A DNA stretch of 35,709 nt, from the NCBI GenBank assembly GCA_046570105.1, contig JBKHVI010000027.1, forward strand, positions 1 to 35,709. Reading direction: 5' to 3'. Both the position numbers and the translations under genes were made by a program. Positions within the stretch are counted from its first letter, which is position 1. Each line of letters starts with the position of its first letter. This DNA is from Bacteriovoracia bacterium (GTDB taxonomy: Bacteria; Bdellovibrionota; Bacteriovoracia; Bacteriovoracales; Bacteriovoracaceae). This document shows, in pieces, positions 20,353 through 35,709 of this stretch. The notes beneath the pieces were generated by a model. That model did not search any database and had not been told where the DNA came from. It saw nothing but the letters and a program-made list of their open reading frames with translations.

Positions 20353-23300
20353 ATGTTTAATCAATATGTCTATATTTTGATGCTGGCCTCTTTTGTCTCA
20401 AGTGCTTGGGGAAGGCCAGATTTCTTACGAGAAAAATATCTCGAAGTTGAAATCATTGAGTCGCCACAAGAGGTCATTGAACTTGATACGACTCATATCA
20501 TTAAAGGTTATCTGTGTTTAAAGCACAACATTGGTCACAGTAATAATTGCCGCATGCTCGCACCAGAGGATTTATCAAAATATGAGATTAAGTTTACTTA
20601 TCCTCACGCCACTTCGGACATAACTCAAAATGTTCAAATTATCGAAGAAGAAAATCGCTTTCGTTTTGAAGCAAGTCTGCCAGCACTTACGCCGGGCATT
20701 CAGTCTCCGCGCTTTGGTGCCTATTTATTTCAAAAAGGACATACTGGTCACGGTCTTCACGTGGCCTATCAGAAAATTCTGGCCCACATCGAAAGATTTG
20801 AGCAGCTAAAAGACAAACTTCACTGGAAAGGAAAAAATAGCTACGAGAAGCATCTAAAACATTTACGAAGTATTGCTCAAAAGCTTCAAAAGAAAATTCA
20901 TGCGCAAGATGCCAGATGGGCCGAGAGAAGCATACCGTTGCAACTTAAAAACTTTGTTGCCGCCCCATCGTCATGGATGGTTTCGACAGCTTCTTGGAGT
21001 ATTGAAGCCGAAGCGCAACTGGGTACAGGTTTTAAGGGGGAGAAGAGTTGGCTTGATTTGGCATTCAACCCTTACGATGACGTGGATGATGAATGGAAAG
21101 TCGAGGTTAAGCAAAATGATCAACTTATATTTGAGCAGACTGGGTTCAAATCCGATTTACATCAAAGAATTTTGCTGTCCGGAGATTTTGTTGGCGAATC
21201 AGAAGCTGAGATTAAAATTTGGGGAAAGAATGCCAAAAAAGGGAAATGGCATTGGGAATCCGTTTTTAAAAGAGATTTAAAGATTTTTCGCATCGAAGAT
21301 TTGGTCGCTCCAACATATAAATCTTTTCTGCCTCTACCTGGCCGATACGTCGGAAGAGACGTGCCAACCTTCTCACTTGTCCTTGAAGATTTAAAAGGGC
21401 GCATGGATCGCCTGACGGTAGACGGTGATTTAGTAGAAGATGGTGGCAATCGAGTATCACTTAAAAATACTTTTAGTTTTGAAACATCGCAAAATACTCT
21501 GGTCGCCGATATTCATGGCTCTCAAAATGGGAGTGATCTGTTTAGCATCACTGGTATGCCTCAAGGCGTTCCTGAAGGGTTTTATAATTTACAAATGCTC
21601 GTGAAGGACTTTGCTGGAAACCAGGCCCCAGAAGCGAGCTGGCGCTTTATCGTTGACCGCACGCCTCCAATCATTGCTTATCCAAATGTTCCAAGCATTA
21701 AGTCGAATGATGAATCTTATGAGCTTGAGATCAATGTGACGGACGCCACAGATGTTCTGATCCAAGTTTTTCATAATGGAGTTTTTGTTGGAGAAACGAC
21801 TCAAAAGATAGATGGCATGGCGATTGATCTGGTGGATGGTGCAAACTTTGTCCGCCTCACGGCCATTGATGAGGCCGGAAATATGTCTGAACTCAATTAT
21901 CCACCGATCTTTTTGGATAATCTTCCTCCTGAAATTGAAGATATTAATATTGAAGATGGTCTACTCATTCGGACGGCTTCTTTTAATATTCAAGGTTCGG
22001 CCATTGAAGAGCTAGGTTCAATCCTAGTTAACGGACAAGAAGTTGATTTTGAATCGACCGGAACAACCTTTTCATTTGATATCAGTCTTTATGCAGAAGG
22101 TGAGCAGACGCTGACGCTTGAGCTCTTCGATCTAGCGGGTAACTCAATCACCTATGAATATCAGATTGATTTTTTACTTCGTCTAGTTGATGGTGCACTT
22201 ATTCGTGTTGAAAAAATTAATGAAGATCAAATGAAGATCATGGGGTTTCCCGGAGCAACCGGGCCAAACTTTCCTTTGGAAATCGATGCTGGCTGGTTTA
22301 ATTCAACAGAGCTTACGGCAAATGATGATGGTTCTTTTGAGGTAATTCTTGATGCATTTGATGAAGCGATCGTAACAGCGACTTATCCTTTGAACGGGCG
22401 ACAAGAGTCTGCTCTGGCAAAGTTTAAATTTGATACAACGCTTGCCGGTGTTGTGAAAGATAAAGACGACAACCCGCTCCCAGGAGTAACGGTAACGATT
22501 CAGTCTTCCGAGCAAGAGACAGTCACTGACGAAGCAGGAAGGTTCTATATTTCTGATCCAGCACTGGGTGATCAGACACTGATAATTGACGGGACAACTA
22601 TTCCTGTCGAGGTCACGCAAGGTACAAGGGAGTTTTCACAGATTGCCTATAACGTCTCGCTCGGAAGTCGCCAGCAGAACATTTTAGAGCGCCCCATTTA
22701 TTTATCTCCTAAAATGCTTGATGGCACTGAAACCATTATTACCAACGGTGCATCAGTTAGCGTATCTAGCTCTCATGCGCCAGGCGTGAGTCTTGAGGTT
22801 CCTGCAGGAGCGGCCGTATTTCCTGGAGGAGGCAATTCTGGAAGCATTAATATTATTGAGATTCCAGGTAGTAGAACTTCGATCGAAGTCCCGGATGAAG
22901 CCATTCCTGATACTGTGTTTGCGCTTGAGCCTTCTGGTCTAGAATTTAAAGAACGTGTGCACCTGACACTTCCAAACCCCAATGAATTCCCAGAGGGAAC
23001 CGAGCTCGTTATCCTGTCACGAAATTCGGAGTCAGGGTATTGGGAGATTGATGGCTCTGCTACCGTAACAGGCCCTGACATGATCGAAACCAAACCGGGG
23101 CAGGGAATTTCCCACTTCTCAGAAGTCTTTGCAGCTCCACTTGGGATGGAAATTAAAAAGTTTGCCGACGGAGATAAACCTCGTATTGACACTCTTGATG
23201 GGGCCGTGAGCACACAGATAAGTCTGCCGTCGTTTAAAGTTTTGGGACAAGATATCACTCCGTCTCTGACTTATAACTCTAATTGGGCCTATCCCAACGT

Positions 23301-26300
23301 TTTAGTAACAAACGTCTTTGATCTTCCACGTAAGTATTTTGATGTCCGTGAAAAAGATATGGTGGCCTCACCTGGAGTGGTCAGGTCAGACATTCGTATT
23401 CGGACTTGGATCACACCAGAGTGGATTGATGCCAGGTTTGTGGCCGGCAATATTAATTCAGGTAACATGCGCTATAAGGGCCTTCCTGATCAAGCAGTCG
23501 TTAGCTCACAACATGATCTTTCAACCCTCTCATCAGGGATTATTCCGACGAATTCGAGTTATGAAATCCGATTCAAGCACCTCACGCTTGTCACAGGAAA
23601 AGTTAAAGTTCGAAACTCCTACTCAACTTCAACTCAGAAAATTAAGCCGATTCGCCAAGTCACGTGGGAGTCAGTCTTTCCGCCAGATTTGCAGGCCCCA
23701 GTCTATCTTCAAAATAAAAAAGAATCGCCTTATGGTGAGGGCTGGCAGTTAAACTTCACTAAAACCATTCTTAATCCTGGAAGCGATCGGGTTTTGGTTG
23801 AAAATGAAAATGGTGGAGTGGCCGTTTATGCGATTAAGAACGTCGTGCAAAACCTTGCGTATGACGAAAAGGGTATTGAAGCCTTTGGTTCAGATGGAGG
23901 GAATGTTTATTTTGTTAACTCAGAGAATAACCTCTTTCAATATTCTGATGGTGCGACAAATCTCATCAATCCACTTCCTCGTTACTCTGGACAAGTGGGT
24001 ATCAATGCGTCTTGGTATCATGGCTATAGTCGAAACTGTGTTAAGTCTGGCTGGAGTGGGTGCCGTAAATATGAATACACTTACCGCTATACCTGTGAAA
24101 AATATAATGCTCCATTTGATACAGGGCGAACCACGCAGAGCTTAAGTGTCAAAAACGGTTCAGTCCATTTACTGGATGGGCTAGGTGCTGTGTTTGAGTC
24201 ATCGTCTGAACTTCCAATTGCAGGACAGATGGGGCTTCCTGCTAACCTTAAAACGGCAACCAAAGCAAGTTCTGGCCCATCAATTGTCTCTCACTGTACC
24301 AATGTGACAGGTGAAGCTTGTTCGACTGTGAAAGAGAATCGCTCATTTTATGTCGTGAGAATAAAGAGTCGTCCAAAAAATCAAGTGGGCTACTGTAATA
24401 CAGCGACCTGCTATTCTGGAACTTGCTCACCACGCACATGGCTCACTGGTTCTGGGGCAGTCCCTCAAATAGGCTTTTCAGATGGCCCGCTGTCATCAGC
24501 AAAATTTAATAAGCCCTATGATTTTGTCAGCGGTAATCGTGAAGGCACTTTCTACGTAACAGATTATGGTAATAACATTGTCCGCTTTGTTGATACAGTC
24601 TTAGGGCAAGTAAGCACTGTAGCCGGAAATCGCTCTACTACAGACAGCGGTGACGGTGGCTTTGCCACAAGTGCTTCAATGTATCACCCTCGCGGCGTCG
24701 CCGTTGATTTAGATGGTAGCTTCTATGTGTCTACTGAGAAAGGTTATATCCGCAAAGTAGGCGTCGATGGTCGCATAACTACTTTTGCTGGTAAACCAAC
24801 CACGGCTGGCGGTGTCCTCGCTGATACGACTGATTTTGAGTCGATGGCGCTCAAAAATCCAAGTGGGCTAGTGCTAGATAAAGTGAATCAATTCCTTTAT
24901 GTCGCCGATACAGGCCATAACAGAATTATGCGCTTGAACCTTAATACCAAGCTTGCGCAAGTCGTCGCCGGAAATGGCACTTGTGTTGTAGGTGATACTC
25001 AAGAAGGAAAAGTCGGGCTTGAGATTTCACTTTGTGGCCCGGAGCGAATTGCTTTGGATGGTAATAACAATCTTTTGATTCTAGATAAAGTGAACAAGAG
25101 AATCCGTCGTGTTAATTTCACATCACCTGAAGATGGTCTTTTGAATTTTCAGCCTTTTGCTAAAGACAATACCATGCTTTACAAAAATCAGGCGGGAGAG
25201 TTCGTTCTTTCATATCGTGATGGCAGTCAAACACTCTTTAACAAAGATGGACAGCAGATTGAAACATCAGACCGCACGGGCAGAGTTCATCGCTTTAGCT
25301 ACAACGAAGACAAACAACTGACTAAAGTTCGCTTCCCCACTAATCAAGAGCTAGAGCTTGAGTATGCCGGTGGTCGTTTATCACAAATCATTGATCCAGC
25401 AGGCCGCATCACTCAATTCGTAAATGAAGACGGAAGAATTGGCCAAGTCATTTATCCTGACAACTCAGTTCGTGAGTTCAATTACCAAGAGGATGGGATT
25501 CTCACCGAAGAAAAAGACCAACTTGGTTATGCCACAAGCTACGAGTTAAACAATTTCAAACGCCTCAAGGTCATTCATCGTCCAGACAATACCACGATTC
25601 AGATTAGCGATGCACTTTCTCAGAGTTTGCACCAAGGGGAAGATGCAGGTGAACAAGAGCTGAAGAGCTTTAAGGGCGAGCTGAATAAGTTGCAAGATAT
25701 TATTCGCGATGCCAAAGGTTACGAGACAAGTTTCAGTCGAGACACCAATGGCTATGTTGACACGATTACGGACTCGCAAGGAAGAGTGACAAAGGTTGAG
25801 CGTGACACTGAGGGGCGTCCAACGAAGATCATTAACTTCGATGAAACTTTTAGTACAATGGCGTATAATTCATTTGGCGATCTAGTCCAACACTATAATT
25901 CTTCTTCAAATAGCTCTGAGTCTTTTGAGTATAACAGTAGTGGTAGTTTAATAAAGTACACAAATTCAATGGGCCAAGTTAGGACTGCAATCTATGATTC
26001 AGAAACGGGACTGCTTATTGAGGAGCGTGATTATTTAGGACAAATAAGTCGCAAAACTTATAATACTTTTGGTCTGGTAGCTTCTCAAACCAACCCTAAT
26101 AACGAAACCTCTCAATTTAATTATAATGAGTATGGGAACCTCGTGCAGGTGACTTCACCTAAAAATGAATCGGTACAATTTTCAAGAGATGCAAGTGGCA
26201 ATATCATTTCAAAAACGGATTCAAATAATCATTCAGTAAATTACTCATTCGATCTACTCAATAGGATTTTGTCTGTTCAGACCGCTAAAAATTTAACAAC

Positions 26301-28461
26301 AAGCTATAAATACTCTCTACGAGGTGATCTCGTTGAAATTATCGATCCTGCCAATAACAAGACCCAATTTTTTTATGACAGTATGGGGCGAACTAGCAAA
26401 AAGATATCTCCCTTAGGACAAGTCTATCAACTCTCATATGATGAAAATGGAAATGTTGCACAGGAGATTGATCCTATTGGTAGCTTAAAGAGCTTCAGCT
26501 ACGATGCGAGTAATCGATTGATAAAGAAGATACTGCCAGATGATATTTATGAATACACTTTTAATGAAAAAGGACAAATGATCTTTAGTAAAAATAATTC
26601 ATCAACCATTGCACTTAGTTTCACAGAGATTCTTGGAAGTGAAAAGGTTGCTAGCATCCTGATTGGAGGGCCTCAAGCGGTAGCCTTGGAAAGTGTACAT
26701 GTCTATGATGTTCTAGGAAGAAGAACCGAACTTCAGACTTCTGTCGGAACTTGGACGACATATTATGACGCTAATGGAAGGGTATCGACAATTAACGGGG
26801 CATTTGGTGATAATTATTTAATGGGATTTGATTCTGTAAATCGATTGAAAAATATCTCTAGGCCAGGAGGAGTTCAAAGCTTGATTAGTTTTGATGCCGC
26901 TTCGGCTGTGACTCAGATTTTGCACAAGAGAAGTGATGCCTTATTGAATGGTTTTAATTATCAACAAGATGGGTCAGGCAATAGGACGCAGATAGACTCC
27001 ATGCTTGGGACCACTGTTCTCACATATGATCAAGACGATCAGTTAACTGGCGTGAATGCCCCTTATGGCGAAGAAAGCTTCCAATATGATGAACTTGGGA
27101 ATCGAGTTATTGATAGTGATGGAGTCTTCAGTTTTGAGCAGAAAAAGTATCGAATGATTGAGGATATGGGATTCATCTACGGTTATGATGCAAACGGGAA
27201 TTTGATAACGAAACAGAGCAAAGGCTTAAACGGTGCAGTTTATAACTTTAAATACACATCTGAAAATCAACTCAAATCAATACAAATTTTTGAAGCGGCA
27301 GAACTGAAGAAAGAACTTCATTTTTATTACGATGTGCTAGGGCGAAGAATTAAAAAGCAAGTTATCGATCATAATGAAGCTCAAAAATCATTTACTCATA
27401 AATTTGCTTATGACGGTCAGGATGTCATCGCAGTCTTTAATGAAAATGACGAGTTGATGGCAAGATACACGCATTCAGGAATGCGCATGGATGATGTACT
27501 TGGCGTAGAAGTGACAAATGCTGGAGTGGACGGTGGAATGGCAAATAGCTCGGGTAAGTTCTACTTTCTGAAAGATGTCATGGGGACTATTACGGATATC
27601 ATCGATGCTGCTGGAGTAGTTGTACAGCGATACTCCTATAGTGCCTTTGGTAGATTACTCAAGACGATGGGTGCGGATGGGATGGAGCTTGCGAGTCCAA
27701 TTATCAAAACTCACTACGCGTTCACAGGAAGAGAGCTTGATGAAGAAAGTGGACTATACTACTACAGAGCACGTTATTATGATGCCCACAGTGGAAGGTT
27801 TATGCAGGAGGATCCGCACTCTGGTGATATAAGAAATCCAATTACAGTAACGAATAGATATGTTTACGGGGGAAACAACCCTGTGATGAATGTCGATCCG
27901 AATGGACGCTTCTTCTTTGCCGCAATCATTATTGGAGCAGTTTTAGGTGGTGTCATTGCTGATGCAAATGGAGGGAACTTTCTTGAAGGTGCCTTGATTG
28001 GTGCAGCTGCTGGAGGGGTTGGAGCTTTTGTTGGTGGAGCTGTTGGACTTGGAGTAGGTAACGCTGTTTCGGGTGCTATCGGTGGTACGGCTGGCTCATT
28101 TTTTGGTGGCGTTGCGGCTTTTGGAGCAGGAGCCTTTGTAGGTGGTTCGGTGGGAGGACTTGCGGGAGGTGTTGTTGGGGCCGGTATTGGTGCTGTAAAT
28201 GGACGAGGAGCCGAGGAAGGTCTTTTCTATGGACTTGGTCTAGGCTTCTCTGTCGGGGCAATTACAGGCGGATTAGCTGGGCTTGGCTCCTATGCATACG
28301 GGGACTTCTTATTTAATGATGTTGACTTCGGTATAGATGCCTTTGGGATTAAAACGAATTCAATTCAAAGATACATTTATAATGAAGCTTATGGCACAGC
28401 TTCAGGACTATCAAAAATTTTAAAAGGTCCAAATGGGACTGAATACTTGCCGGTATTTTAG
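20353..28461 (+). CDS. Giant secreted teneurin-like RHS/YD-repeat protein (Ig-like repeats, carboxypeptidase-regulatory-like, ZU5-like, NHL propeller, YD shell, RHS core, Gly-rich tip)
   Basis: Sec signal; D.AGN...D..PP Ig repeats; GVVKDKDDNPLPGVTV; LEVPAGA...LEPSG..F...SHFS; GDGG.A..A...PRGVAVD and LYVADTGHNRI (NHL); many YD..G repeats; YYYRARYYD..GRF..EDP...NNP..NVDPNG. Confidence 0.93.
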   Translation: MFNQYVYILMLASFVSSAWGRPDFLREKYLEVEIIESPQEVIELDTTHIIKGYLCLKHNIGHSNNCRMLAPEDLSKYEIKFTYPHATSDITQNVQIIEEENRFRFEASLPALTPGIQSPRFGAYLFQKGHTGHGLHVAYQKILAHIERFEQLKDKLHWKGKNSYEKHLKHLRSIAQKLQKKIHAQDARWAERSIPLQLKNFVAAPSSWMVSTASWSIEAEAQLGTGFKGEKSWLDLAFNPYDDVDDEWKVEVKQNDQLIFEQTGFKSDLHQRILLSGDFVGESEAEIKIWGKNAKKGKWHWESVFKRDLKIFRIEDLVAPTYKSFLPLPGRYVGRDVPTFSLVLEDLKGRMDRLTVDGDLVEDGGNRVSLKNTFSFETSQNTLVADIHGSQNGSDLFSITGMPQGVPEGFYNLQMLVKDFAGNQAPEASWRFIVDRTPPIIAYPNVPSIKSNDESYELEINVTDATDVLIQVFHNGVFVGETTQKIDGMAIDLVDGANFVRLTAIDEAGNMSELNYPPIFLDNLPPEIEDINIEDGLLIRTASFNIQGSAIEELGSILVNGQEVDFESTGTTFSFDISLYAEGEQTLTLELFDLAGNSITYEYQIDFLLRLVDGALIRVEKINEDQMKIMGFPGATGPNFPLEIDAGWFNSTELTANDDGSFEVILDAFDEAIVTATYPLNGRQESALAKFKFDTTLAGVVKDKDDNPLPGVTVTIQSSEQETVTDEAGRFYISDPALGDQTLIIDGTTIPVEVTQGTREFSQIAYNVSLGSRQQNILERPIYLSPKMLDGTETIITNGASVSVSSSHAPGVSLEVPAGAAVFPGGGNSGSINIIEIPGSRTSIEVPDEAIPDTVFALEPSGLEFKERVHLTLPNPNEFPEGTELVILSRNSESGYWEIDGSATVTGPDMIETKPGQGISHFSEVFAAPLGMEIKKFADGDKPRIDTLDGAVSTQISLPSFKVLGQDITPSLTYNSNWAYPNVLVTNVFDLPRKYFDVREKDMVASPGVVRSDIRIRTWITPEWIDARFVAGNINSGNMRYKGLPDQAVVSSQHDLSTLSSGIIPTNSSYEIRFKHLTLVTGKVKVRNSYSTSTQKIKPIRQVTWESVFPPDLQAPVYLQNKKESPYGEGWQLNFTKTILNPGSDRVLVENENGGVAVYAIKNVVQNLAYDEKGIEAFGSDGGNVYFVNSENNLFQYSDGATNLINPLPRYSGQVGINASWYHGYSRNCVKSGWSGCRKYEYTYRYTCEKYNAPFDTGRTTQSLSVKNGSVHLLDGLGAVFESSSELPIAGQMGLPANLKTATKASSGPSIVSHCTNVTGEACSTVKENRSFYVVRIKSRPKNQVGYCNTATCYSGTCSPRTWLTGSGAVPQIGFSDGPLSSAKFNKPYDFVSGNREGTFYVTDYGNNIVRFVDTVLGQVSTVAGNRSTTDSGDGGFATSASMYHPRGVAVDLDGSFYVSTEKGYIRKVGVDGRITTFAGKPTTAGGVLADTTDFESMALKNPSGLVLDKVNQFLYVADTGHNRIMRLNLNTKLAQVVAGNGTCVVGDTQEGKVGLEISLCGPERIALDGNNNLLILDKVNKRIRRVNFTSPEDGLLNFQPFAKDNTMLYKNQAGEFVLSYRDGSQTLFNKDGQQIETSDRTGRVHRFSYNEDKQLTKVRFPTNQELELEYAGGRLSQIIDPAGRITQFVNEDGRIGQVIYPDNSVREFNYQEDGILTEEKDQLGYATSYELNNFKRLKVIHRPDNTTIQISDALSQSLHQGEDAGEQELKSFKGELNKLQDIIRDAKGYETSFSRDTNGYVDTITDSQGRVTKVERDTEGRPTKIINFDETFSTMAYNSFGDLVQHYNSSSNSSESFEYNSSGSLIKYTNSMGQVRTAIYDSETGLLIEERDYLGQISRKTYNTFGLVASQTNPNNETSQFNYNEYGNLVQVTSPKNESVQFSRDASGNIISKTDSNNHSVNYSFDLLNRILSVQTAKNLTTSYKYSLRGDLVEIIDPANNKTQFFYDSMGRTSKKISPLGQVYQLSYDENGNVAQEIDPIGSLKSFSYDASNRLIKKILPDDIYEYTFNEKGQMIFSKNNSSTIALSFTEILGSEKVASILIGGPQAVALESVHVYDVLGRRTELQTSVGTWTTYYDANGRVSTINGAFGDNYLMGFDSVNRLKNISRPGGVQSLISFDAASAVTQILHKRSDALLNGFNYQQDGSGNRTQIDSMLGTTVLTYDQDDQLTGVNAPYGEESFQYDELGNRVIDSDGVFSFEQKKYRMIEDMGFIYGYDANGNLITKQSKGLNGAVYNFKYTSENQLKSIQIFEAAELKKELHFYYDVLGRRIKKQVIDHNEAQKSFTHKFAYDGQDVIAVFNENDELMARYTHSGMRMDDVLGVEVTNAGVDGGMANSSGKFYFLKDVMGTITDIIDAAGVVVQRYSYSAFGRLLKTMGADGMELASPIIKTHYAFTGRELDEESGLYYYRARYYDAHSGRFMQEDPHSGDIRNPITVTNRYVYGGNNPVMNVDPNGRFFFAAIIIGAVLGGVIADANGGNFLEGALIGAAAGGVGAFVGGAVGLGVGNAVSGAIGGTAGSFFGGVAAFGAGAFVGGSVGGLAGGVVGAGIGAVNGRGAEEGLFYGLGLGFSVGAITGGLAGLGSYAYGDFLFNDVDFGIDAFGIKTNSIQRYIYNEAYGTASGLSKILKGPNGTEYLPVF

Positions 28462-28468
28462 GAAGTTT

Positions 28469-29116
28469 ATGCACAATATTTTGCTAGTACTTTGTTTGAT
28501 TGTTTTGAGTTCATGTGCGACCTCTACAGAAAAAGCGTCTATTTATAGACCAATGGGTATAGCCCAGAAGAAGACTTTTTCAGTCTTTTTCAAAGCTCGA
28601 TTTAACTCTCAGATCAATACAAAGTATGCTTCACTCCTACCGTCAGATGTAACGAGTGATCTTGAGAATTGTTCAGAGGTTCGACCGGGGGATTCTAGGG
28701 ATGGTTATCTTAAATCTGTGTTGTGTTTGACGTACTTCAATTTACTTAAGTCATACGACTTAAGATTAGTTCAATCAGAGGAAGAGTTTAGGAGTAAAAA
28801 AACGTTTAGTATCGAGTATGTAATTTCTGAAGATCAAGAGATAGCAAATAAAATCTGGTCTTGGTCTAATTTATTGACTTTAACTATAATACCTTATTGG
28901 GGACAACGAGAATTCAAACTGGCTATTTTGGAACAACAAGGAGATCAAGTCATTTCTGAGAGAGTGTTTAATGCTCATTTCACGGAGTATAGGAGTATTA
29001 TTCTACTTCCAGCAATGCCATTTACTGACGGCTACAAGATAGGAACTAGAAAAGCTGTGTCAAATTTACTTTCACAGGTGGATGAGCACTTCCAGAATTT
29101 TGATAAGAAGAAATAG
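28469..29116 (+). CDS. Lipoprotein, candidate cognate immunity/partner protein
   Basis: AGGA SD; LSSC lipobox; 7 nt after the RHS stop; hydrophobic LLTLTIIPYW and IILLPAMPF segments. Confidence 0.7.
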   Translation: MHNILLVLCLIVLSSCATSTEKASIYRPMGIAQKKTFSVFFKARFNSQINTKYASLLPSDVTSDLENCSEVRPGDSRDGYLKSVLCLTYFNLLKSYDLRLVQSEEEFRSKKTFSIEYVISEDQEIANKIWSWSNLLTLTIIPYWGQREFKLAILEQQGDQVISERVFNAHFTEYRSIILLPAMPFTDGYKIGTRKAVSNLLSQVDEHFQNFDKKK

Positions 29117-29230
29117 TTGGCCAAAAAATGGCCAACAGTTTTCAAAAATTTCCAAAATTTCGCCAAAAAGTGCCTGTGGGTCTAACTCGACAACTAACCC
29201 TTCATTCGTAAGATTGTCGTAATGAGACCC
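29116..29230. repeat. Cluster of short inverted/direct repeats, candidate recombinase binding (att) region
   Basis: GTTGGCCA-AAAAA-TGGCCAAC (29116-29136); CAAAA(A)TTT repeats; TCGTAA twice 11 bp apart; GGGTCT..CGACAA / TTGTCG..AGACCC imperfect inverted repeat. Confidence 0.45.
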
Positions 29231-29240
29231 ATTTTGAGAG

Positions 29241-29271
29241 AGAAAATAAAGGGGAAGACTAAGCCTTCCCC
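29241..29271 (-). terminator. Intrinsic terminator of the recombinase operon
   Basis: Minus strand GGGGAAGGC-TTA-GTCTTCCCC followed by TTTATTTTCT, 10 nt after the stop codon. Confidence 0.85.
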
Positions 29272-29281
29272 GATGTGTTTC

Positions 29282-30301
29282 TTATTCAAAAGGATTTGTG
29301 ATCGCTTTCGTAATCATTTCTTTGGCACTTTCTCCATAAAGTCTTCTGGTATCCGAGAGAACCCCATGCCCTAAGATATATTGAAGTTCCTTCATATCTC
29401 CACCACGAGATAGAAAATTCACCGCAAAAGAATGTCTGAGATCAAGTGGTGTCCAGTCTCCTTTATAGAGATTGGCGAGCTTAAATTCAGTGACAAGGCG
29501 ATGAAATTTATTCGTGGTAAAGGGTTCATTGTAGTATGTCCAAAAAAGTACACCTGTTTTCTTAGGCTTGTTTTTAAGTAGGGTAACAAGTTCTTCAGAG
29601 ATGGGAAGAGTTCTTTCTTTACCAGCTTTATTCTCGACAAAGTGAATAGTGCCTTTTTCCAAGTTTACATCATTCCATTTTAAATCGACCACCTCCTTGT
29701 TTTTAGAGGCGGTTTCAGAGATGAGTTTAATCATTGGATAGAGATAGCCGGGGGAATAAGACTTGATGGAGGTTAAAAGATCTTCAATATGAGAAGAAGT
29801 GAGGATGTTTCTTGACTTCACCGAAGGGACATACTTTTGGTAATAAATCTTACTCAAGGGTGATTCTGAAATAATATCCTTATCCACAAGAAAGCTAAAA
29901 AGCGTGTCAACTTGACACTTAAGTCCTCTCATTGTGATGTCCCTAAGTTTGTATTCCTTTTGCACCTGATCGAGCCATACTTTGAAGGAGTCAGAGGTGA
30001 GTTCACTCACTTGATATTCTCCAAAGGTACTGACAAAATCCATGATGTGAATTTTGCTTTTTGCAAAAGCGTTGCGAGGCTTTTCATCAATAAAAATCAT
30101 GATGAGTTCTTCAAGAGTTAATTCTTGATAATGACTTCGATGTTTACGACGGTACTTGATTTCCATTTCTTCTTTATAACCTTTGGCCAGCTCTCGACTG
30201 GTAAAGGCCTTACGCACTTTCCTTTTTGAGAGTGGATGGGTAAAGCTGGTTAAAAATGTTCCATCCTGGATAGGATAGATGTTTACTTGAAATTCATTCA
30301 T
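29282..30301 (-). CDS. Tyrosine recombinase paralog with a partly degenerate active site
   Basis: ETASKNKEV (catalytic R replaced by K), PLDLRHSFA (H replaced by L), LGH and RLY retained; GAGG SD before ATG 30301. Confidence 0.88.
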   Translation of the reverse strand: MNEFQVNIYPIQDGTFLTSFTHPLSKRKVRKAFTSRELAKGYKEEMEIKYRRKHRSHYQELTLEELIMIFIDEKPRNAFAKSKIHIMDFVSTFGEYQVSELTSDSFKVWLDQVQKEYKLRDITMRGLKCQVDTLFSFLVDKDIISESPLSKIYYQKYVPSVKSRNILTSSHIEDLLTSIKSYSPGYLYPMIKLISETASKNKEVVDLKWNDVNLEKGTIHFVENKAGKERTLPISEELVTLLKNKPKKTGVLFWTYYNEPFTTNKFHRLVTEFKLANLYKGDWTPLDLRHSFAVNFLSRGGDMKELQYILGHGVLSDTRRLYGESAKEMITKAITNPFE

Positions 30302-31352
30302 GGTTTTCCTCTTTTGTGTTTTGGGTGTTGTCGTAAGGTGATGGACACTCAATATCTTGTGCTTGAAGCTGCCCATAAAGGTTGACTGTCACATCAATTG
30401 ATCTGTGCCCTAAAATGGCCTGCAGTTGATACATCTTTCCACTTTTCTTTAAGAAGTTATAAGCGAAGGAGTGACGCAGACAATGACTGGCCCAATCTTT
30501 TCCATTGGGAAAGAAGGCCTTGAATTTGGTGATATGCCTTGTGAGGGCCGAGCGCCCAATTCTTTCACCTTCTTCATTCAGAATGAGTGGGATTTTCTCA
30601 TGCTTTGCAAGTTGTTTTTCCAGAATTGTCTTTAAAACTGGAGAAATTTTTACGAATCTTTCGTGGGAGTTTTTCGTTTCCCGAAAGTGAATCAAATCCG
30701 TTTCAAAATCAATATCATCTCGATTAAGTTTGACGATCTCTCCACGTCTTGCCCCTGTGTGGGCGGCAATCGCAAGGAAGGGATATAAAAGGTCGGGTGA
30801 AAAAGTCTTGGCACTTTCTAGGACATGTAAGACTTCGTTAACAGACATGACGATACGCTTGCGGCGAGGGTTGTCATACCGCTTAAACTTGATTCGGTCT
30901 AACGGATTTTGTTGTAAATAATCTTCATGATGGAGATACTCAAAAAAGCGGTAAAATTGCGTCTTTATTCCGTTCATTGTTCGTTCACTAAGGTTTCCCT
31001 CCGTCTTTCTACTTTGAAACCACTCTTTCAAGTCGTTAACAGTGAGTTCGCCAATTCGGTAAAGGCCAAAAGCATCAATGAACGATTTGAAGTGATTTTT
31101 TCTTGATCTTACCAGTGATGCTGGAAAAATTTCGAGATACAGTTTCATGGCCTCTGATACTCGAACATCGCTAAAAACATTGACTCCCTTGGAGTTCACT
31201 TTAGTCTCTATACTTTTTTTGAAGTCTTTGGCGTCTTTGAGTGTGGCAAATCGCTTACGCTTTCTTTTCCCTGTCTTGGGGTCAAAGAACTTGACCTGAA
31301 TGTGTCCTGAACTCATTTTGTGAATTTTGACATTAAATTGATTTAAATTCAT
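30294..31352 (-). CDS. Tyrosine recombinase/integrase with canonical active site
   Basis: HTGARRGEI, ETKN, HCLRHSFA, LGH, NLY; N-terminal arm-binding-like segment; start 31352 (GGAG SD, ATGA overlap with the upstream stop). Confidence 0.93.
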   Translation of the reverse strand: MNLNQFNVKIHKMSSGHIQVKFFDPKTGKRKRKRFATLKDAKDFKKSIETKVNSKGVNVFSDVRVSEAMKLYLEIFPASLVRSRKNHFKSFIDAFGLYRIGELTVNDLKEWFQSRKTEGNLSERTMNGIKTQFYRFFEYLHHEDYLQQNPLDRIKFKRYDNPRRKRIVMSVNEVLHVLESAKTFSPDLLYPFLAIAAHTGARRGEIVKLNRDDIDFETDLIHFRETKNSHERFVKISPVLKTILEKQLAKHEKIPLILNEEGERIGRSALTRHITKFKAFFPNGKDWASHCLRHSFAYNFLKKSGKMYQLQAILGHRSIDVTVNLYGQLQAQDIECPSPYDNTQNTKEENHE

Positions 31353-32560
31353 GCGCTCATCTCCAAAAGTTCGTGGGATGATGGAAGATGATGCTCTTTC
31401 ATCATGTGTTTTTGGGTACGATCTCGAAGCCACTGATCTAATTTTTCTGGTCCTATGAGATACTTCTTTTTGACTCCGACATTTACATAGGGAAACGTCG
31501 GGTCTGATTTAATGTGGTGATAAATTAACCACTGACTGATGCCATACATACGGGCCACCTCCTTGATGGAATAGAGTCGTTTTGTGGGAGTTTGCTCCAC
31601 ACTTGTTGGCCAACATAATGTCGGCCGTTCAGTCAATGGCCGCTCTGATGGCCCTGAATTTTTTGGGGCACGATCTTTAGGATAAGGGAGTCTAAGCTTG
31701 TCGGGATTCCGGATGACAAAGAGTCCTCTAAGCTTTTTGGTTTCCGTTTTGTTCAGGCCCAGAATATAAACGTACTTGTGCTTTCTAGGTAAGCTGCGCT
31801 TAGGGATGCTATTCTGATACTCCCTAGCTTTTTTTTTCAGTTGTTGGGCAATGTCAGAAGGTACTTTGTCCCAAAAAATCTTATCCCGATGACTCCATCC
31901 ATTTTGCCAACTAATGCCAAGCTCCTGAGCATAAAGCTTAAAGCTAGTGGTCTTTCTGAATACACGGTCACTAAATCCCTTGTCTGAAAACTTCTTATCA
32001 AAGTATTCAAACCGTGCCCCAGAATCTTGTCCCAGATAGATAAAGTTACAGGCCTGATAAATGGTGCCGAGTTCCCGTGCTTCCGTGTCCGAATAGGCCG
32101 TAAAGAATCTATAAGGGGTATTCTTCACCATCCAACGGATAGAAAACATCACAAGGGCCGAAGCCAGATTCTTGGGACTCCATGAAATACACGCCCCACG
32201 GCTGATGAGCTTTTCTTTGTCCCGATATTCTTTACCCAGAAGATTAGAAAAGGCGTTAGGTGTGGCCATGACAATGACTCCAGCAAGCTTGCCTTGATAG
32301 GTGGCAATAAATCTGTGAGTCGGGCGGTGTGGCATCTTGCCAAGCCACTCATGCCTTAGAATGAAATCTTTAACTTTCTGGCACGTTTCTTTATCTTCCT
32401 TGGAAACAAACTGAAATTCAAAATCAGAAACTCGAAGCGTGTCGATCTCAGCGTGAGTCAGTTCTGCCTCTTCCAAGTCTTGAGCGAGATTTTTCTGCCT
32501 GATCTCGTATTGCCAGCAATGAGAGGCCGTGAACTCGCGAGAGTTGAGTTGGTGTTTCAT
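31349..32560 (-). CDS. Mom-like (GNAT-fold) DNA modification protein fused to a C-terminal excisionase-like HTH
   Basis: FILRHEW, GKLAGVIV, ISRGAC...PKNLASAL...SIRW, AYSD...LGTIYQACNFIYLG resemble phage Mu Mom family motifs; C-terminal LYSIKEVARMYGIS..LIY..I...P..VG...I....LDQWL is HTH_17/Xis-like. Confidence 0.75.
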   Translation of the reverse strand: MKHQLNSREFTASHCWQYEIRQKNLAQDLEEAELTHAEIDTLRVSDFEFQFVSKEDKETCQKVKDFILRHEWLGKMPHRPTHRFIATYQGKLAGVIVMATPNAFSNLLGKEYRDKEKLISRGACISWSPKNLASALVMFSIRWMVKNTPYRFFTAYSDTEARELGTIYQACNFIYLGQDSGARFEYFDKKFSDKGFSDRVFRKTTSFKLYAQELGISWQNGWSHRDKIFWDKVPSDIAQQLKKKAREYQNSIPKRSLPRKHKYVYILGLNKTETKKLRGLFVIRNPDKLRLPYPKDRAPKNSGPSERPLTERPTLCWPTSVEQTPTKRLYSIKEVARMYGISQWLIYHHIKSDPTFPYVNVGVKKKYLIGPEKLDQWLRDRTQKHMMKEHHLPSSHELLEMSA

Positions 32561-32594
32561 ATAAATGTCCTTAGATTTTTATTTAATAGAGAGA

Positions 32595-32747
32595 AACTGT
32601 GAGAATCGCAGTTAGTCCCTCTTTATGAGTCTTGAATGAAAAGAGAATTTTCTCTTTGATTTTAAAATCTTAGTGAATGTCTTGGTTTTTATTCCCTGCT
32701 GACTCATGTATCCCGCTCGCAACGGTGACGGGTCAACATACTCATGA
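32595..32747. other. Intergenic cluster of four hairpins/palindromes, candidate oriT or single-strand origin
   Basis: AACTGTGA-GAA-TCGCAGTT; AAAGAGAA-TT-TTCTCTTT; GATTTTAAAATC; TCATGTATCCCGCTCGC-AACG-GTGACGGG...ATACTCATGA. Confidence 0.4.
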
Positions 32748-32748
32748 A

Positions 32749-33495
32749 TTAGTTAATCGCTAGCACCTCCTTTTGATGATTGATAAAGGAAGTCTTTGTT
32801 TTCAAAGTGAGAAGGTCATCCAGTAAACAGTAAAAGAACTTTGGAGTTAAGTTTCCTTTGAACTTCTTTTCTGCCTGCATGACCTTATTTTGAATACCGG
32901 AAGTCTTGCTGATAAATAGCACTGCCTTAACTTCATCAGTCCCATAGTATTTGTGCATCAGTTGATCGTAGCGTTTAGCGAACTTTGCTGAAGCTTCATA
33001 TTCGAGAGGGAAATAAAAAGTGTCATCTCCGAGATTCGTCTTGATGATGCCATCAGAATTGAGTTTTCTAATTTCTTTGATTATGTGTTCATCATCAAAG
33101 AGTCCAGATTGAAGCACATTTTCGCTTAAGGCTGATTCAACTGACTTGAAGTTTGATAAAATTCGCTTGATCTCCAAGACTCCCAGATCATGGGGAATTG
33201 ATGAACTTTTCCTTTGTATGCGTTTCATTTGGGTTTTATCCCCGATGAACTTTACAAGGGACTTCTTGCTTAGAGAGTAAATCAGTTTGTTACAGGATTC
33301 TCTCAGGTAAGTGACTTCAAGAAACCCATATTTGATAAGTTTATCCAATCGTCTATGCACAGCTTGCTTACTGGCTTGATTAAAGATGTCCTCCCGTAAG
33401 TGGCGAATACTCGCCACTTTGTTAATAAACAGATAACGGAAAAGCTTTTCATCTCGCTCAGTAATGATGAGAGTGTTTTTCTGGGCCTTAAGCAT
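32749..33495 (-). CDS. Replication-relaxation (Replic_Relax) family protein
   Basis: N-terminal wHTH ITERDEKLFRYL...RRLDKL...Y.L; IPHDL; SDG and PLEYE PD-(D/E)xK-like core; coupled to the FtsK gene. Confidence 0.8.
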   Translation of the reverse strand: MLKAQKNTLIITERDEKLFRYLFINKVASIRHLREDIFNQASKQAVHRRLDKLIKYGFLEVTYLRESCNKLIYSLSKKSLVKFIGDKTQMKRIQRKSSSIPHDLGVLEIKRILSNFKSVESALSENVLQSGLFDDEHIIKEIRKLNSDGIIKTNLGDDTFYFPLEYEASAKFAKRYDQLMHKYYGTDEVKAVLFISKTSGIQNKVMQAEKKFKGNLTPKFFYCLLDDLLTLKTKTSFINHQKEVLAIN

Positions 33496-35014
33496 TTAAT
33501 ACATCCTGTTTAGTTAAAGATGGTTTCTTGACTGGAACCGAGGACGATTCAGAAGGTGTTGCAAATCCCATAGGTTGATTTAGAGTCTTTTTTTCTTCTG
33601 CATAATCTTGGGCGATCAATTGAAGCTCTGGCTTCATGGAATTTGATGAAAGAAAGGGAGTCTGGACTTCAATTTCATCATGTCCGAATTGCCAGATGCC
33701 TCGCCCAGGTGTGGCAGGAAGATGAGAAGCCTTAGCGTTTCCGAGAACGCGGACTGAACCTTCAGGAGTGTTGAGCTTGAAGCACATTCTTCCAGATATG
33801 TTTTCCTGCATTCTTGTGTCGATAGTTTCCTTAGAGACCTTTTGGGTAGCTAGGATGAGATGAATAGCAGCAGCTCGTCCAAGCTTAGCGATACTTTCGG
33901 TTAAGTCCCTTGCTTCGCTAACCAGCTCATAATCAACACTATCTTTACGGGCCTGACCATAGAGGACAGAGGCCTCATCAATACCGATAACGATGCGATC
34001 AAAAGGATGTTTGTCTGGATTGATTTGCTCTAGGCCTTTCTTTTCAAGATAGGTGAAGCGGTTATCCATTTCCTTTTTAACGAGTTTTAAAGTTATGAGA
34101 GCATCCTCAATGCTTTTTGAAACCCTGACGTTTGAAAGTTGAGAAAATTCTCTAAACTCAAGCCCACCTTTTAAGTCCACGAGATACATTTGTAGATGGT
34201 TGGTGGATTTAAGAAGGCCTAAGAGCATTTGTTTAAAGAACTGTGACTTTCCTCCACCTGTGGCACCAGCAATGAGCATATGAGGGAGCTTGGAGATTTT
34301 GCCAATGACTGTTTCTTTTTTTGATTCACCAATGAGAAAGGATTCACTTTGATCTAAGCTCCCTTGAAGTTGTTCAAAGGTCACATATTCAGGTAGAAAC
34401 TTAGTGGAGAGAATGATCTCCACATACTTAGGATTTTTAAGGCGGTTGATTTCTTCAATGTCTTTACCGAAGGCAGATTGAAGCTCGTCTTGTTTTGCTT
34501 TGAGCTTTTCGGCTCCAATGCCTGATACATAAACGATAAGTCTTGTTCGGTGCTCATCTAATCGAGTGATGCTATCAATCTCGGCGGTTACGTCTTTAGC
34601 ATTTTTAAGTCCAATGGAGTCGAGAGCGTGTTGGTAATCCTTGAAGCGGAAATACGGAATAATGCCAATGATCCAGAGAAGAACCGTTGAGATAGGAACC
34701 GCAACCAGAGAAAAGTTTTTCTGAAATCCTAGATCATGGATTGCTTGCAGTCTTTTAAGAGGAAAGAGCCATGATGAGAGATCATGGAGAAGTTGCAAGT
34801 GCCACTGATAGTGGATGATTGTCATTGTGATGAGAGAAACAAGGCTGATTCCCATCAGTAATACTTTAAAGCTTCTGAGTTGCTTCAAACCGAACCAAAA
34901 AGAATGGGTGAAGAAAACGAAGATAGGTCCTAGCTGGATGAACGCTTCATTAAGAATTTCTCCGATCATCTTGTCGGTGCTGGATGGCGTATTGGTCTTT
35001 TTTGTTTCGTTCAT
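33488..35014 (-). CDS. FtsK/SpoIIIE-family membrane ATPase (TcpA-like coupling protein/translocase)
   Basis: N-terminal TM helices; PHMLIAGATGGGKS (Walker A), VDLKGG, IDEA (Walker B), GRAAAIHLILATQK; AGGAG SD. Confidence 0.92.
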   Translation of the reverse strand: MNETKKTNTPSSTDKMIGEILNEAFIQLGPIFVFFTHSFWFGLKQLRSFKVLLMGISLVSLITMTIIHYQWHLQLLHDLSSWLFPLKRLQAIHDLGFQKNFSLVAVPISTVLLWIIGIIPYFRFKDYQHALDSIGLKNAKDVTAEIDSITRLDEHRTRLIVYVSGIGAEKLKAKQDELQSAFGKDIEEINRLKNPKYVEIILSTKFLPEYVTFEQLQGSLDQSESFLIGESKKETVIGKISKLPHMLIAGATGGGKSQFFKQMLLGLLKSTNHLQMYLVDLKGGLEFREFSQLSNVRVSKSIEDALITLKLVKKEMDNRFTYLEKKGLEQINPDKHPFDRIVIGIDEASVLYGQARKDSVDYELVSEARDLTESIAKLGRAAAIHLILATQKVSKETIDTRMQENISGRMCFKLNTPEGSVRVLGNAKASHLPATPGRGIWQFGHDEIEVQTPFLSSNSMKPELQLIAQDYAEEKKTLNQPMGFATPSESSSVPVKKPSLTKQDVLNA

Positions 35015-35062
35015 GGTTTTACTCCTGTGTTGAACGGTTTTGTTTTTGGTTAAGACCCTAAG

Positions 35063-35078
35063 GCAAAGACCGTGCCAA
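35063..35078 (-). promoter_or_regulatory. Sigma54 (RpoN) -24/-12 promoter for the ftsK-relaxase operon
   Basis: Minus strand TTGGCACGGTCTTTGC is an exact match to TGGCACG-N4-TTGC, 48 nt upstream of the ftsK ATG and correctly oriented. Confidence 0.82.
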
Positions 35079-35094
35079 TTTTGAAAGTGATAAA

Positions 35095-35107
35095 AATAAA
35101 TGAGTTA
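35095..35107 (+). promoter_or_regulatory. IHF-like binding site between promoter and palindromes
   Basis: AATAAATGAGTTA versus WATCAANNNNTTR (one mismatch) in an A-tract context. Confidence 0.4.
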
Positions 35108-35147
35108 CAAGTGCTCAAAATAATTTTAGAAAATTTGAAGCAAAAAA

Positions 35148-35233
35148 TGTGACGAGGTCTCGTCACAAAAACTCAAAAAATAAATAAAATCAGAATCATT
35201 TTAGCGATTTAGAAATCTGACGAAGTTTCGTCA
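35148..35233. promoter_or_regulatory. Two related 16-bp palindromes, candidate enhancer (UAS) or operator sites
   Basis: TGACGAGGTCTCGTCA (35150-35165, symmetry extends to 35148-35167) and TGACGAAGTTTCGTCA (35218-35233). Confidence 0.7.
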
Positions 35234-35469
35234 TAAACTTTGGAAAAGGCCTACTGGTGCGACTAATTTCTGAAAGTTTTAAAAGACTTAAAGTACCTTT
35301 TGAGGTGGCGAGAGTCCGTCACTTTGAGGTCCTAACTGCGCAATCAAGTAACAGTAAGTGTGCATTTGGGTAACAGTAGAGGGATTGCTCCGTGCTTTTC
35401 CTTGGCCTGTAACCAGTTGAAAGCAGGTACTCCGTTGTGAGTTCAAGTTATTGAAAAGAAATGCCGATA

Positions 35470-35498
35470 TTGACAATGGTGCTATATGTGATACCATT
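35470..35498 (+). promoter_or_regulatory. Sigma70 promoter of hicA with overlapping inverted repeat (candidate HicB operator)
   Basis: TTGACA (35470-35475), TG-n-TACCAT (35489-35497), AATGGT-N12-ACCATT (35475-35498). Confidence 0.7.
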
Positions 35499-35503
35499 AT
35501 TTA

Positions 35504-35709
35504 ATGAGTATAGATGAAGCTTTGGAAGCTCTCGCGAGTGATACAAATATCAAGTTTAAAGACCTTCTCAAAATTTGCGAGAATTTTTTTGAAGGCCCGA
35601 AGATAAAAGGAAGTCATCATATCTTCAAAACTCCATGGCAAGGCCAGCCATGGGTGAACATTCAGAAGGATGGAAACAAGGCCAAGAGCTATCAGGTGAA
35701 ACAAGTTCG
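35504..35709 (+). CDS. hicA: HicA-family toxin, truncated by the window end
   Basis: Not in the ORF track. MSIDEALEALASDTNIKFKDLLKICENFFEGPKIKGSHHIFKTPWQGQPWVNIQKDGNKAKSYQVKQV; GSH motif and NIQ..G.AK.YQVKQ. Confidence 0.88.
   Translation, partial: MSIDEALEALASDTNIKFKDLLKICENFFEGPKIKGSHHIFKTPWQGQPWVNIQKDGNKAKSYQVKQV

Follow-up and report, generated by a model that had tools for sequence, protein, structure and literature searches.

Paired tyrosine recombinase genes, one with a conserved remodelled active site, in a candidate rhs-targeting element of Bdellovibrionota

We analyzed a stretch of 35,709 nucleotides from a Bacteriovoracia bacterium of the phylum Bdellovibrionota (contig JBKHVI010000027.1; the whole stretch is referred to as the window), whose minus strand carries two open frames within positions 29282–31352. 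The two genes, here named IntA and IntB, encode paralogous proteins of the tyrosine recombinase type, of which only IntA has a canonical active site, and they face the 3' end of an rhs toxin gene. A first-pass annotation had regarded them as a duplication-derived heteromeric recombinase with one weak or structural subunit; the apparent target of the pair, the rhs toxin gene, is a context absent from that annotation. Based on residue conservation, selection and gene order, we consider it probable that IntA has in IntB a conserved partner that cleaves weakly or not at all. Together the two genes are best read as the recombination module of an integrative element of ~8.5 kb that targets the rhs toxin gene. 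The coordinates of all features are collected in Table 1.

The tandem integrase genes and their active sites

The frames of IntA and IntB share 8 nt, and the ATG of IntB, preceded by the Shine-Dalgarno-like word GAGGA, lies inside the final IntA codons (ATGAATGA). Upstream, the ATG of IntA overlaps the stop of a 403-aa gene as ATGA; because of these overlaps, the 403-aa gene, IntA and IntB were read as one unit. Directly 3' of the IntB stop there is a strong hairpin resembling an intrinsic terminator, in which a stem of 9 pairs, including 6 G-C pairs, precedes a run of T. Thus the first-pass description of IntB as having an intact open reading frame, a Shine-Dalgarno sequence and a terminator was borne out by the open frame, the GAGGA word and this hairpin. 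The two proteins were also found to be tandem paralogues that align end to end, as had been noticed before, with 31% identity across 326 residues (BLASTP, E 8e-55). Both exceeded the PF00589 gathering score of 27.1 (73.6 bits for IntA and 80.8 bits for IntB). For IntA, the PF00589 match had an E value of 2.2e-20, and the match to Arm-DNA-bind_4 was weak. The C-terminal words, which belong to conserved tails, were SPY in IntA (as PSPY) and NPF in IntB.

Comparison of the catalytic residues revealed that IntA has the complete set (Arg I, hairpin Lys, His II, Arg II, His/Trp III and Tyr), whereas IntB does not. First, Arg I, which lies in HTGAR in IntA, is Lys200 in IntB (ETASK). Second, His II in the IntA sequence HCLRH is Leu286 in IntB (LDLRH), where it is followed by an invariant Asp287. 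The other positions are occupied alike in both proteins: the beta-hairpin Lys (ETK in IntA, ENK in IntB), Arg II (Arg289 in IntB), His III within LGH (His312 in IntB) and the Tyr within LYG (Tyr322 in IntB). These assignments agree with the first-pass reading, in which R-K-HxxR-H-Y was intact in the first protein, TGAR had become TASK and HCLR had become LDLR in the second, and LGH and the Tyr were kept. The motifs gave the same result as a profile-based alignment with a solved structure of XerA (chain 5hxy), which placed the IntB Lys opposite a XerA Arg and the IntB Leu opposite a XerA His.

An AlphaFold2 model of IntB reached a mean predicted local distance difference test score (pLDDT) of 86.5, and contained a small N-terminal domain of three strands and a helix (residues 7–49), which was followed by a core-binding domain made of helices and by the catalytic domain. 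In a Foldseek comparison, this model matched XerA (E 2e-12), the Int protein of Tn1549 (1e-11) and full-length lambda Int (2e-11), and the Tn1549 Int structures 6emz and 6en2 in the PDB were among its top fold matches. IntB is therefore a member of the tyrosine recombinase superfamily by fold and descent, not by its active site.

Conservation of the IntB pocket and of the pair

A homologue search of 5.8 billion clustered proteins identified 49 relatives of IntB at E ≤ 1e-5, and their named sources were Bacteriovoracaceae, Halobacteriovoraceae, and Bacteriovorax or Bdellovibrionales metagenome-assembled genomes (MAGs). IntB was aligned with 36 full-length relatives (46–74% identity; 37 sequences in total, fragments left out). 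The first-pass annotation had offered the conservation of the Arg-to-Lys and His-to-Leu changes as a test of its own idea; in the alignment, Lys occupied position 200 in 37/37 sequences, and His was absent from position 286 in all 37, its place being taken by Leu, Met, Ala, Gly or Ser. Asp287, Arg289 and His290 were likewise present in 37/37. His312 was found in 36/37 (Gln in P0010) and Tyr322 in 35/37 (Cys in P0021 and Phe in P0036). The column of the beta-hairpin Lys was variable among IntB homologues, with Met, Ala, Glu, Gln or Thr, and the N-terminal residues His22, Pro23, Leu24, Arg30 and Phe33 ranked among the best-conserved of the whole protein. Among IntA-type sequences, R202, K227, H290, R293, H316 and Y326 were invariant (24/24).

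The ratio of nonsynonymous to synonymous substitution rates (dN/dS, ω), calculated by the Nei–Gojobori method, indicated purifying selection on IntB rather than neutral decay (0.10–0.11 for IntB versus 0.09 for IntA). In detail, comparison of L065 with L068/L069 gave dN 0.017, dS 0.18 and ω 0.092 for IntA, and dN 0.040, dS 0.36 and ω 0.11 for IntB; comparison of L065 with L066 gave ω 0.10 for IntB. In the former comparison the dS of IntB was twice that of IntA, which may mean inter-element recombination within the module.

These data bear directly on the idea that IntB is a decaying duplicate. Two of its catalytic residues have been replaced, and one decayed copy of the element does exist, in which both IntA and IntB are split by frameshifts beside an rhs remnant (L013:668-2737). 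However, the IntB frame is intact in 25 distinct loci, its ω is about 0.1, the replacement residues are invariant across the family and the folded model is confident. Decay can thus be ruled out with something close to certainty, and the first-pass idea withstood the refuting conditions set for it, namely canonical residues or neutral decay among homologues of the second gene.

Is IntB then a working recombinase? In a remodelled pocket, Lys200 and Asp287 might stand in for Arg I and His II, each of the two proteins exchanging one pair of strands as in XerC/XerD. The near-universal Tyr322 and His312 and the universal Arg289 would agree with this, and so would the fixation of Lys and Asp as alternatives, which does not look like random loss, and a strength of selection equal to that on IntA. 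Moreover, IntDOT is functional although it lacks Arg I, and Cre and Flp retain part of their activity when His II is mutated. Nevertheless, we consider a working IntB unlikely: the beta-hairpin Lys column is not conserved among its homologues, two close homologues lack the Tyr (P0021 and P0036), deeper second genes described below lack it as well (L031 and L143) and, according to the report on Tn1549 Int, an Arg-to-Lys change at the phosphate-contacting Arg inactivates that enzyme (PMC5871717).

B-type genes were gathered from one genome per species, from metagenome contigs and from four genome regions, and grouped at 97% identity. This resulted in 25 distinct genes, 23 of which were evaluable (L067 and L073 lie at contig edges with too little upstream DNA). 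An integrase gene was located directly upstream on the same strand in all 23, and it was of the IntA type in 22. The remaining gene, in L075, is an additional B that follows an A–B pair. In this trio (L075:3009-6139), the additional IntB-type gene is 42% identical to IntB, and both B copies have Lys at Arg I and lack His II.

A maximum-likelihood tree (quick search, 47 rows, L143 and L144 absent) placed the paired IntA genes in one clade (support 96) and the IntB genes in another (support 100). The same sub-groupings appeared in both clades: the window with L007; L010, L022 and L023; and L014 with L016. Pairwise identities of A and B across 19 loci were correlated (Mantel r 0.81, with none of 2000 permutations as high), and B was more diverged than A in 150 of 171 comparisons. 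Since A-to-B identity within a locus was 25–32% in every pair, the duplication that separated the two genes must be old. On this evidence IntA and IntB appear to have travelled together since that old duplication, with B evolving somewhat faster. The claim of a duplication-derived pair thus held for the paralogy itself; the duplication is old, and IntB seems to be an addition rather than a requirement of the basic reaction, as discussed below.

The constant order of the pair is also relevant to another explanation, in which IntB acts outside the synapse as an independent DNA-binding regulator that occupies arm or core sites to set direction, represses the operon or aids DNA transfer. Its arm-type N-terminal and core-binding domains are confidently modelled, its N-terminal residues are among the best conserved, and single-integrase elements manage without it; in addition, a recombinase homologue serving as a conjugative relaxase is mentioned in one report (PMC9345347). 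On the other hand, overlapping frames and the strict A-to-B order (22/23) suggest co-production at equal dose, as for subunits, and the fold of the catalytic domain is conserved at full length, which mere DNA binding would not require. A separate regulator is thus rather improbable.

More distant second genes were full-length in L054, L144, L031 and L143. In both L054 and L144, Lys occupies the Arg I column, Arg the His II column and Tyr the Tyr column. The L031 gene has Arg in the Arg I column, Arg in the His II column and Phe in the Tyr column. In L143 (L143:7340-9396; G162, a three-contig genome), the second gene lacks five catalytic residues including the Tyr, with Lys at Arg I, Pro at His II, Asn and Ile at others and Met in the Tyr column. 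It is preceded by full-length FtsK-like, orf248-like, Mom–helix-turn-helix (HTH) and IntA frames, and the rhs motif of this locus lies on the integrase strand. The tree fork did not separate descent of the L054 and L031 genes in the IntB lineage from separate duplications. Catalysis appears to be dispensable for the second gene, because the copies of L031 and L143 that lack the Tyr have stayed full-length; this suggests that the second protein can do its work in the absence of the Tyr nucleophile. The R225K mutant of Tn1549 Int, which is inactive and yet assembles the usual complex with DNA, is in agreement with this (PMC5871717). The earlier notion of a weak or structural subunit fits the loss of the Tyr in these deeper copies (Phe in L031 and Met in L143), whereas the near-universal Tyr322, Arg289 and His312 within the IntB clade itself leave room for weak or altered catalysis.

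rhs junctions, element ends and gene content

A module was regarded as evaluable if at least 1.9 kb of downstream sequence was present or an rhs hit was found. Of the 30 evaluable integrase modules, 26 had an rhs core-end motif no more than 3.5 kb from their 3' end, and in 25 of them the two were convergent. Among pair-bearing modules (including the broken pair of L013) the motif was present in 18 of 19, with L007 as the exception. The distance between module and rhs junction was 0.7–1.9 kb in most related loci, which corresponds to one tip and one immunity gene. Canonical single integrases of the same family, each after a short HTH gene, likewise adjoin rhs ends. Since these single-integrase relatives occupy the same kind of site, IntB would be an added layer and not part of the core chemistry.

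The limits of the element became visible from contigs of other samples. Three loci from another population (L006, L063 and L077, from metagenome and genome contigs) match the window at 99.5–99.7% identity over a segment that extends from IntA or IntB across the immunity gene into the tip; the identity ends inside the rhs codons YYYRARYYD, and the rhs core upstream is different. When Logan contigs of three further studies were compared with window positions 25500–35709, an 18.4-kb contig (X2) matched 27763–35709 with 4 differing letters, a 19.2-kb contig (X6) matched 27775–35709 with none, and two contigs of X7 matched 27750–32147 and 32120–35709 with 5 and 0 differing letters, respectively. 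The shared block is thus 99.9–100% identical to the window, and its left contexts differ, two of them being rhs cores. The left flank in X7 is another rhs core, and that in X6 is non-rhs sequence ending exactly at 27775. Overall, the sequences found on the left included no fewer than three distinct rhs cores as well as one non-rhs flank, always joined at the same codons. Because the same block occurs in different left contexts, the sequence from 27775 to ~540 nt past the window end was taken as one mobile unit of ~8.5 kb. In the window the join is in frame, and therefore the 2702-aa Rhs protein carries the tip of the element.

On the right, a direct repeat of 27778–27818 follows beyond the window end, after 525 nt in X7 and 540 nt in X2, and is succeeded by a displaced old tip. 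The sequence 3' of this repeat differs between X2 and X7, and X11, from which only short pieces were available, represents a third continuation. These contigs of other samples place the displaced tip of the window's rhs past the contig end. Two related loci display both ends: in L066, a perfect 50-nt attL/attR repeat brackets 9.7 kb on a single contig, within which lie the addiction genes, the genes for the FtsK-like protein and its partner, the Mom fusion, the IntA–IntB pair, a gene of the size of an immunity gene and a tip, and in L030 a 33-nt direct repeat is present at the element ends. No circular junction of an excised element occurred among the assembled Logan contigs compared, nothing convincing was found in the way of arm-type or core-type repeats inside the element, and the window contains no tRNA genes.

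With an rhs core-end profile run on six-frame translations of the related loci, we identified 40 distinct orphan tips. Their similarity to the profile sets in at Arg–Tyr–Tyr–Asp or a few codons from it, and the sequence upstream is non-rhs. Their 5' flanks recur between unrelated loci, in classes with ATGAGTGT, GCCTTCAA or the palindromic GAAGCATTTYGCTTC, and look like element ends or cassette recombination sites; non-coding examples are L008:1940-1991, L065:2490-2539, L067:4450-4492 and L043:1510-1555. Another 31 distinct junctions have a long core. Orphan tips with core-end remnants lie downstream of full rhs genes in L006, in contig C106 of the window's own genome and in many related loci, and no orphan-cassette array is visible inside the window. 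C106 (genome G000, 3786 bases) contains rhs orphan modules, a fragment of an IS3-type transposase and a masked stretch, and may be the array beyond the right end of the window, to which no overlap was found; no contig-end overlap of at least 20 nt extends the window rightward. In L012 (1000-10231), rhs fragments lie upstream of the integrases on the same strand, an orientation unlike the usual convergent one, and a 176-nt repeat (89%) is present on both sides of the module.

Such orphans could also arise if the integrases were bystanders and both tip exchange and orphan arrays resulted from homologous recombination at the conserved core end, that is, by classical C-terminal displacement. The long core in some orphans (233 aa in L006, for example) and the 31 long-core junctions would be expected in that case, RecA could act on the 40–50 nt that are shared, and a recent preprint attributes tip exchange to homologous recombination (10.64898/2026.07.13.738213). 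What argues against bystanders is that the starts of 40 distinct orphans cluster to within a few codons and are preceded by flanks that are unrelated yet recurrent, that the rhs junction lies 0.7–1.9 kb from the integrase module in most related loci, and that the boundary of the 7.9-kb block is the same in four contexts. We therefore regard this explanation as very unlikely.

With regard to gene content, the order is the rhs 3' end with the toxin tip and an immunity-like gene, followed on the opposite strand by IntB, IntA, the Mom-like–excisionase fusion, a 248-aa gene, an FtsK-like ATPase gene and an addiction-type gene (Table 1).

Table 1. Features of the window around the IntA–IntB pair
Feature	Coordinates	Strand	Description
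Resident rhs/YD-repeat core	20353..27774	+	Putative insertion target; core differs among samples sharing the element
Element-borne rhs 3' end	27775..28461	+	Glycine-rich toxin tip; in frame with resident rhs core
Junction (att) zone	27775..27818	+	rhs codons Y-Y-D-A-H-S-G-R-F-M-Q-E-D-P; left end of the element
Lipoprotein-like gene	28433..29116	+	227 aa; overlaps rhs stop; convergent with IntB
Intrinsic-terminator-like hairpin	29271..29251	-	Directly 3' of IntB stop
IntB	30301..29282	-	339 aa; paralogous recombinase-like protein with remodelled pocket
IntA	31352..30294	-	352 aa; canonical tyrosine recombinase; arm-type N-terminal, core-binding and catalytic domains
Mom-like–excisionase fusion	31349..32560	-	403 aa; C-terminal HTH_17; translationally coupled to IntA
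248-aa protein	32749..33495	-	Conserved partner of the FtsK-like gene
FtsK/SpoIIIE-type ATPase	33488..35014	-	508 aa; hydrophobic N-terminal part; PF01580 E 5.1e-21
Inverted repeats TGACGA-N4-TCGTCA	35150..35321	.	Three spaced copies, 5' of the FtsK-like gene
Open frame cut by contig end	35504..35709	+	Weakly HicA-toxin-like; PF07927 E 0.0065, below cut-off

The 403-aa protein matched PF25680 in Pfam (E 1.3e-12) and phrog_1384 in PHROGs (E 1.7e-19) over its Mom-like domain (residues ~60–190 and ~59–299, respectively). Its C-terminal part matched PF12728 (E 4.9e-5, 24 bits, below the 27-bit cut-off) and the excisionase family phrog_66 (E 4.8e-5). Homologues of this protein precede IntA-type genes in related loci, and it is likely a directionality or regulatory factor. 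The Mom-like part, an acyltransferase-fold domain within a putative directionality factor, belongs to the family of the DNA-modification protein of phage Mu, and single-integrase relatives carry the short HTH only. A short HTH also replaces the Mom fusion in L014 and L016, two distinct IntA–IntB pairs that share one 58-kb contig and the same rhs region, lie ~12.5 kb apart and are 58% identical to each other in both genes.

The 248-aa protein had no significant family in Pfam, NCBIfam and PHROGs-type profile scans, and its homologues occupy the equivalent position in L008, L009, L011, L022, L065, L066, L069 and L143. The FtsK-like ATPase showed weak matches to EccC, FtsK and plasmid TraB, all below cut-off, and is possibly a DNA-transfer translocase. 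The Mom fusion, the 248-aa gene and the FtsK-like gene occur together in at least L008, L009, L011, L022, L066 and L143. The start regions of IntB (30293-30317) and of the FtsK-like gene (35006-35030) are 84% alike over 25 nt, with an equally spaced GGA word, and both proteins begin with M-N-E. The TGACGA-N4-TCGTCA repeats comprise two perfect copies and one with two mismatches in 172 nt (6 copies in the whole window versus 1.25 expected); a function as operator or as transfer (clt-like) site is conceivable. In relatives, the region beyond the ATPase encodes a RelE-like protein (L008) or a PIN_3 and HTH_17 gene together with an XRE HTH and a DUF6932 protein (L066). The frame cut by the contig end would fit the addiction modules at this equivalent place, its assignment to HicA being weak.

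On the other side of the pair, the TIGR03696 Rhs-associated core domain ends at the element-borne rhs 3' end. The tip itself (27895-28461) is very glycine-rich with long hydrophobic Gly/Ala runs and had no Pfam family match. The 227-aa lipoprotein-like gene had no match in Pfam, NCBIfam and PHROGs-type scans; it is 100% identical in L006, L063 and L077, along with the tip and IntB. From its position it is presumed to be an immunity gene travelling with the tip, and the two are possibly a membrane-acting toxin and immunity pair. A search for the stretch in RNA runs found no matching run.

The distribution was analyzed in 401 genomes spread evenly over the phylum, the window's genome included. 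Matches at E ≤ 1e-30 were present in 22 of these genomes. Full-length members of the IntB clade were found in three (the window's genome, G101 and G372), and fragments in four more (G346, G119, G271 and G379). This patchy spread fits a mobile element.

A candidate mechanism and comparison with known systems

The analysis has shown the residues and their conservation, the pairing, the co-divergence, the selection, the limits of the element and its occurrence in different rhs contexts. Beyond this, we infer that IntA and IntB contact each other, for which the overlapping frames, the adjacency in 23/23 loci and the co-divergence are indirect support, that IntB does not cleave and that the rhs junctions are made by the two proteins. 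Under this reading, the element would insert site-specifically at the conserved rhs core-end codons YYD..GRF..DP, so that the host Rhs would gain the tip of the element in frame and the old tip would be pushed behind the element as a silent orphan. IntA would be the catalytic recombinase, cutting and rejoining within 27775–27818. IntB would bind to both DNA and IntA, either as a subunit with little or no cleavage activity or as a regulator of the synapse, and would take up arm sites or a portion of the synapse with little or no cutting. A part of IntB in asymmetric sites or in control of direction, as raised at first pass, would be hypothetical. The Mom–HTH protein may set the direction of the reaction, and the FtsK-like protein may move DNA between cells. 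More tentatively, Bdellovibrionota mini-elements of this kind could be site-specific exchangers of Rhs tips, whose recombinase would recognise the core-end codons in any rhs gene and place the tip and immunity gene of the element there in frame, and in one sub-lineage a natural pseudo-recombinase, IntB, might hold half of the synapse uncut and so limit or direct strand exchange, as a counterpart of the laboratory Arg-to-Lys trapping mutants.

Several points weigh against a non-cleaving IntB within an rhs-targeting module. Tyr322, Arg289 and His312 are kept in nearly all close homologues of IntB, so residual or altered catalysis is possible, and IntDOT and NBU1 IntN1 are active recombinases without Arg I. 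Single-integrase elements without IntB are found at the same kind of rhs junction. No rhs motif was present in the 2.5 kb downstream of the L007 pair, and inspection of attL and attR revealed no clear inverted half-sites of a core site. The dN/dS figures come from a single unsaturated lineage pair, and the evidence from other samples consists of assembled contigs, which may be chimeric at repeats. Finally, the junctions lie in a stretch of 40–50 nt conserved for coding, at which RecA-type recombination could yield the same products.

If the proposed mechanism is true, the arming or re-arming of a contact-dependent toxin would be an infectious, site-specific event, carried out by a recombinase whose target site exists in every rhs gene of the group. 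Rhs tip exchange is usually credited to homologous recombination, whereas here the tip appears to travel with its own integrase module and to land at one position of the gene. In addition, a conserved partner whose non-canonical pocket is fixed and which is under purifying selection in 25 or more distinct loci would offer a natural model for half-site activity and direction control. In the open full texts searched (supplements and subscription journals being outside the search), we found no description of a conserved integrase partner with the IntB substitutions, nor one of an integrase-bearing element joining rhs at the core end.

Among known systems, XerC/XerD resembles the present pair in comprising two co-made paralogous Xer-like recombinases with an FtsK-family ATPase, here encoded alongside. 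The best NCBIfam and PDB matches of IntA and IntB were XerA, XerC and XerD, and both proteins fail the XerC/XerD equivalog cut-offs of 335/330 bits (90.4/82.2 bits for IntA and 67.7/77.6 bits for IntB). However, both Xer proteins keep the full catalytic set, unlike IntB as judged by its residues; IntA and IntB, unlike Xer, carry an arm-type N-terminal domain; and the site here is an rhs gene with a mobile element, not dif. Two other identities were considered and rejected: matches to integron integrases were weak and below cut-off, and those to DNA invertases had E values of about 1e-4.

Other mobile elements that encode or depend on several tyrosine recombinases include Tn554 and the recombinase-in-trio elements. 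The strand-biased circularizing elements (SEs) share this property with the element described here; both of their recombinases keep R-H-R-Y, which IntB does not, and their gene order is intA–CDS2–intB–CDS4 (PMC9345347). A close parallel to the IntB pocket is the R225K mutant of Tn1549 Int, in which Lys likewise takes the place of the Arg that contacts the scissile phosphate; R225 is presumably equivalent to Lys200 of IntB. This mutant is an inactive catalytic mutant with the same protein–DNA architecture as the wild type (PMC5871717). It is an engineered variant of a homomeric enzyme, whereas IntB is a natural, conserved variant beside an intact paralogue.

In size and gene content, the element is similar to the integrative and conjugative elements of actinomycetes (AICEs) such as pSAM2, which are reported to be ~8–10 kb long and to encode an integrase along with an HTH protein of the excisionase type and an ATPase resembling FtsK/TraB (PMC2440964). 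AICEs integrate into tRNA genes by means of one integrase and belong to actinomycetes (same source), whereas here the target would be rhs and the hosts are Bdellovibrionota MAGs.

The rAID-1 clusters of Bacteroidales are described as containing a single XerD-like recombinase together with arrays of orphan immunity genes and with repeats that are integron-like (10.1101/471110; PMC12247911), the recombinase being defined by more than 44% identity to that of B. fragilis rAID-1 (10.1101/471110). Polyimmunity loci adjoin XerC/D-type recombinases, according to another report (PMC3482391). By description, both may resemble the present loci in having a Xer-like recombinase beside orphan toxin or immunity cassettes with recurrent intergenic motifs. 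They differ in having a single recombinase without a degenerate partner and cassettes of immunity genes only, in occurring in a different phylum, and in that no toxin-gene junction and no FtsK-like or Mom-like genes are described. A 2026 preprint also mentions Xer-dependent systems next to polyimmunity genes, with tip exchange by homologous recombination (10.64898/2026.07.13.738213).

The loci analyzed here also invite comparison with rhs C-terminal displacement. In that concept, reportedly introduced by Jackson and colleagues in 2009, new tip–immunity pairs displace the old ones, which are left downstream as orphans. In the present loci, by comparison, many orphans start near one position with non-rhs flanks and the integrase module travels with the tip; a tip that travels with the module and a fixed orphan start point to site-specific rather than homologous recombination. 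Taken together, paired tyrosine recombinases and rhs tip displacement are known kinds of systems, and what appears to be new in this element is the degenerate but conserved partner and the rhs target.

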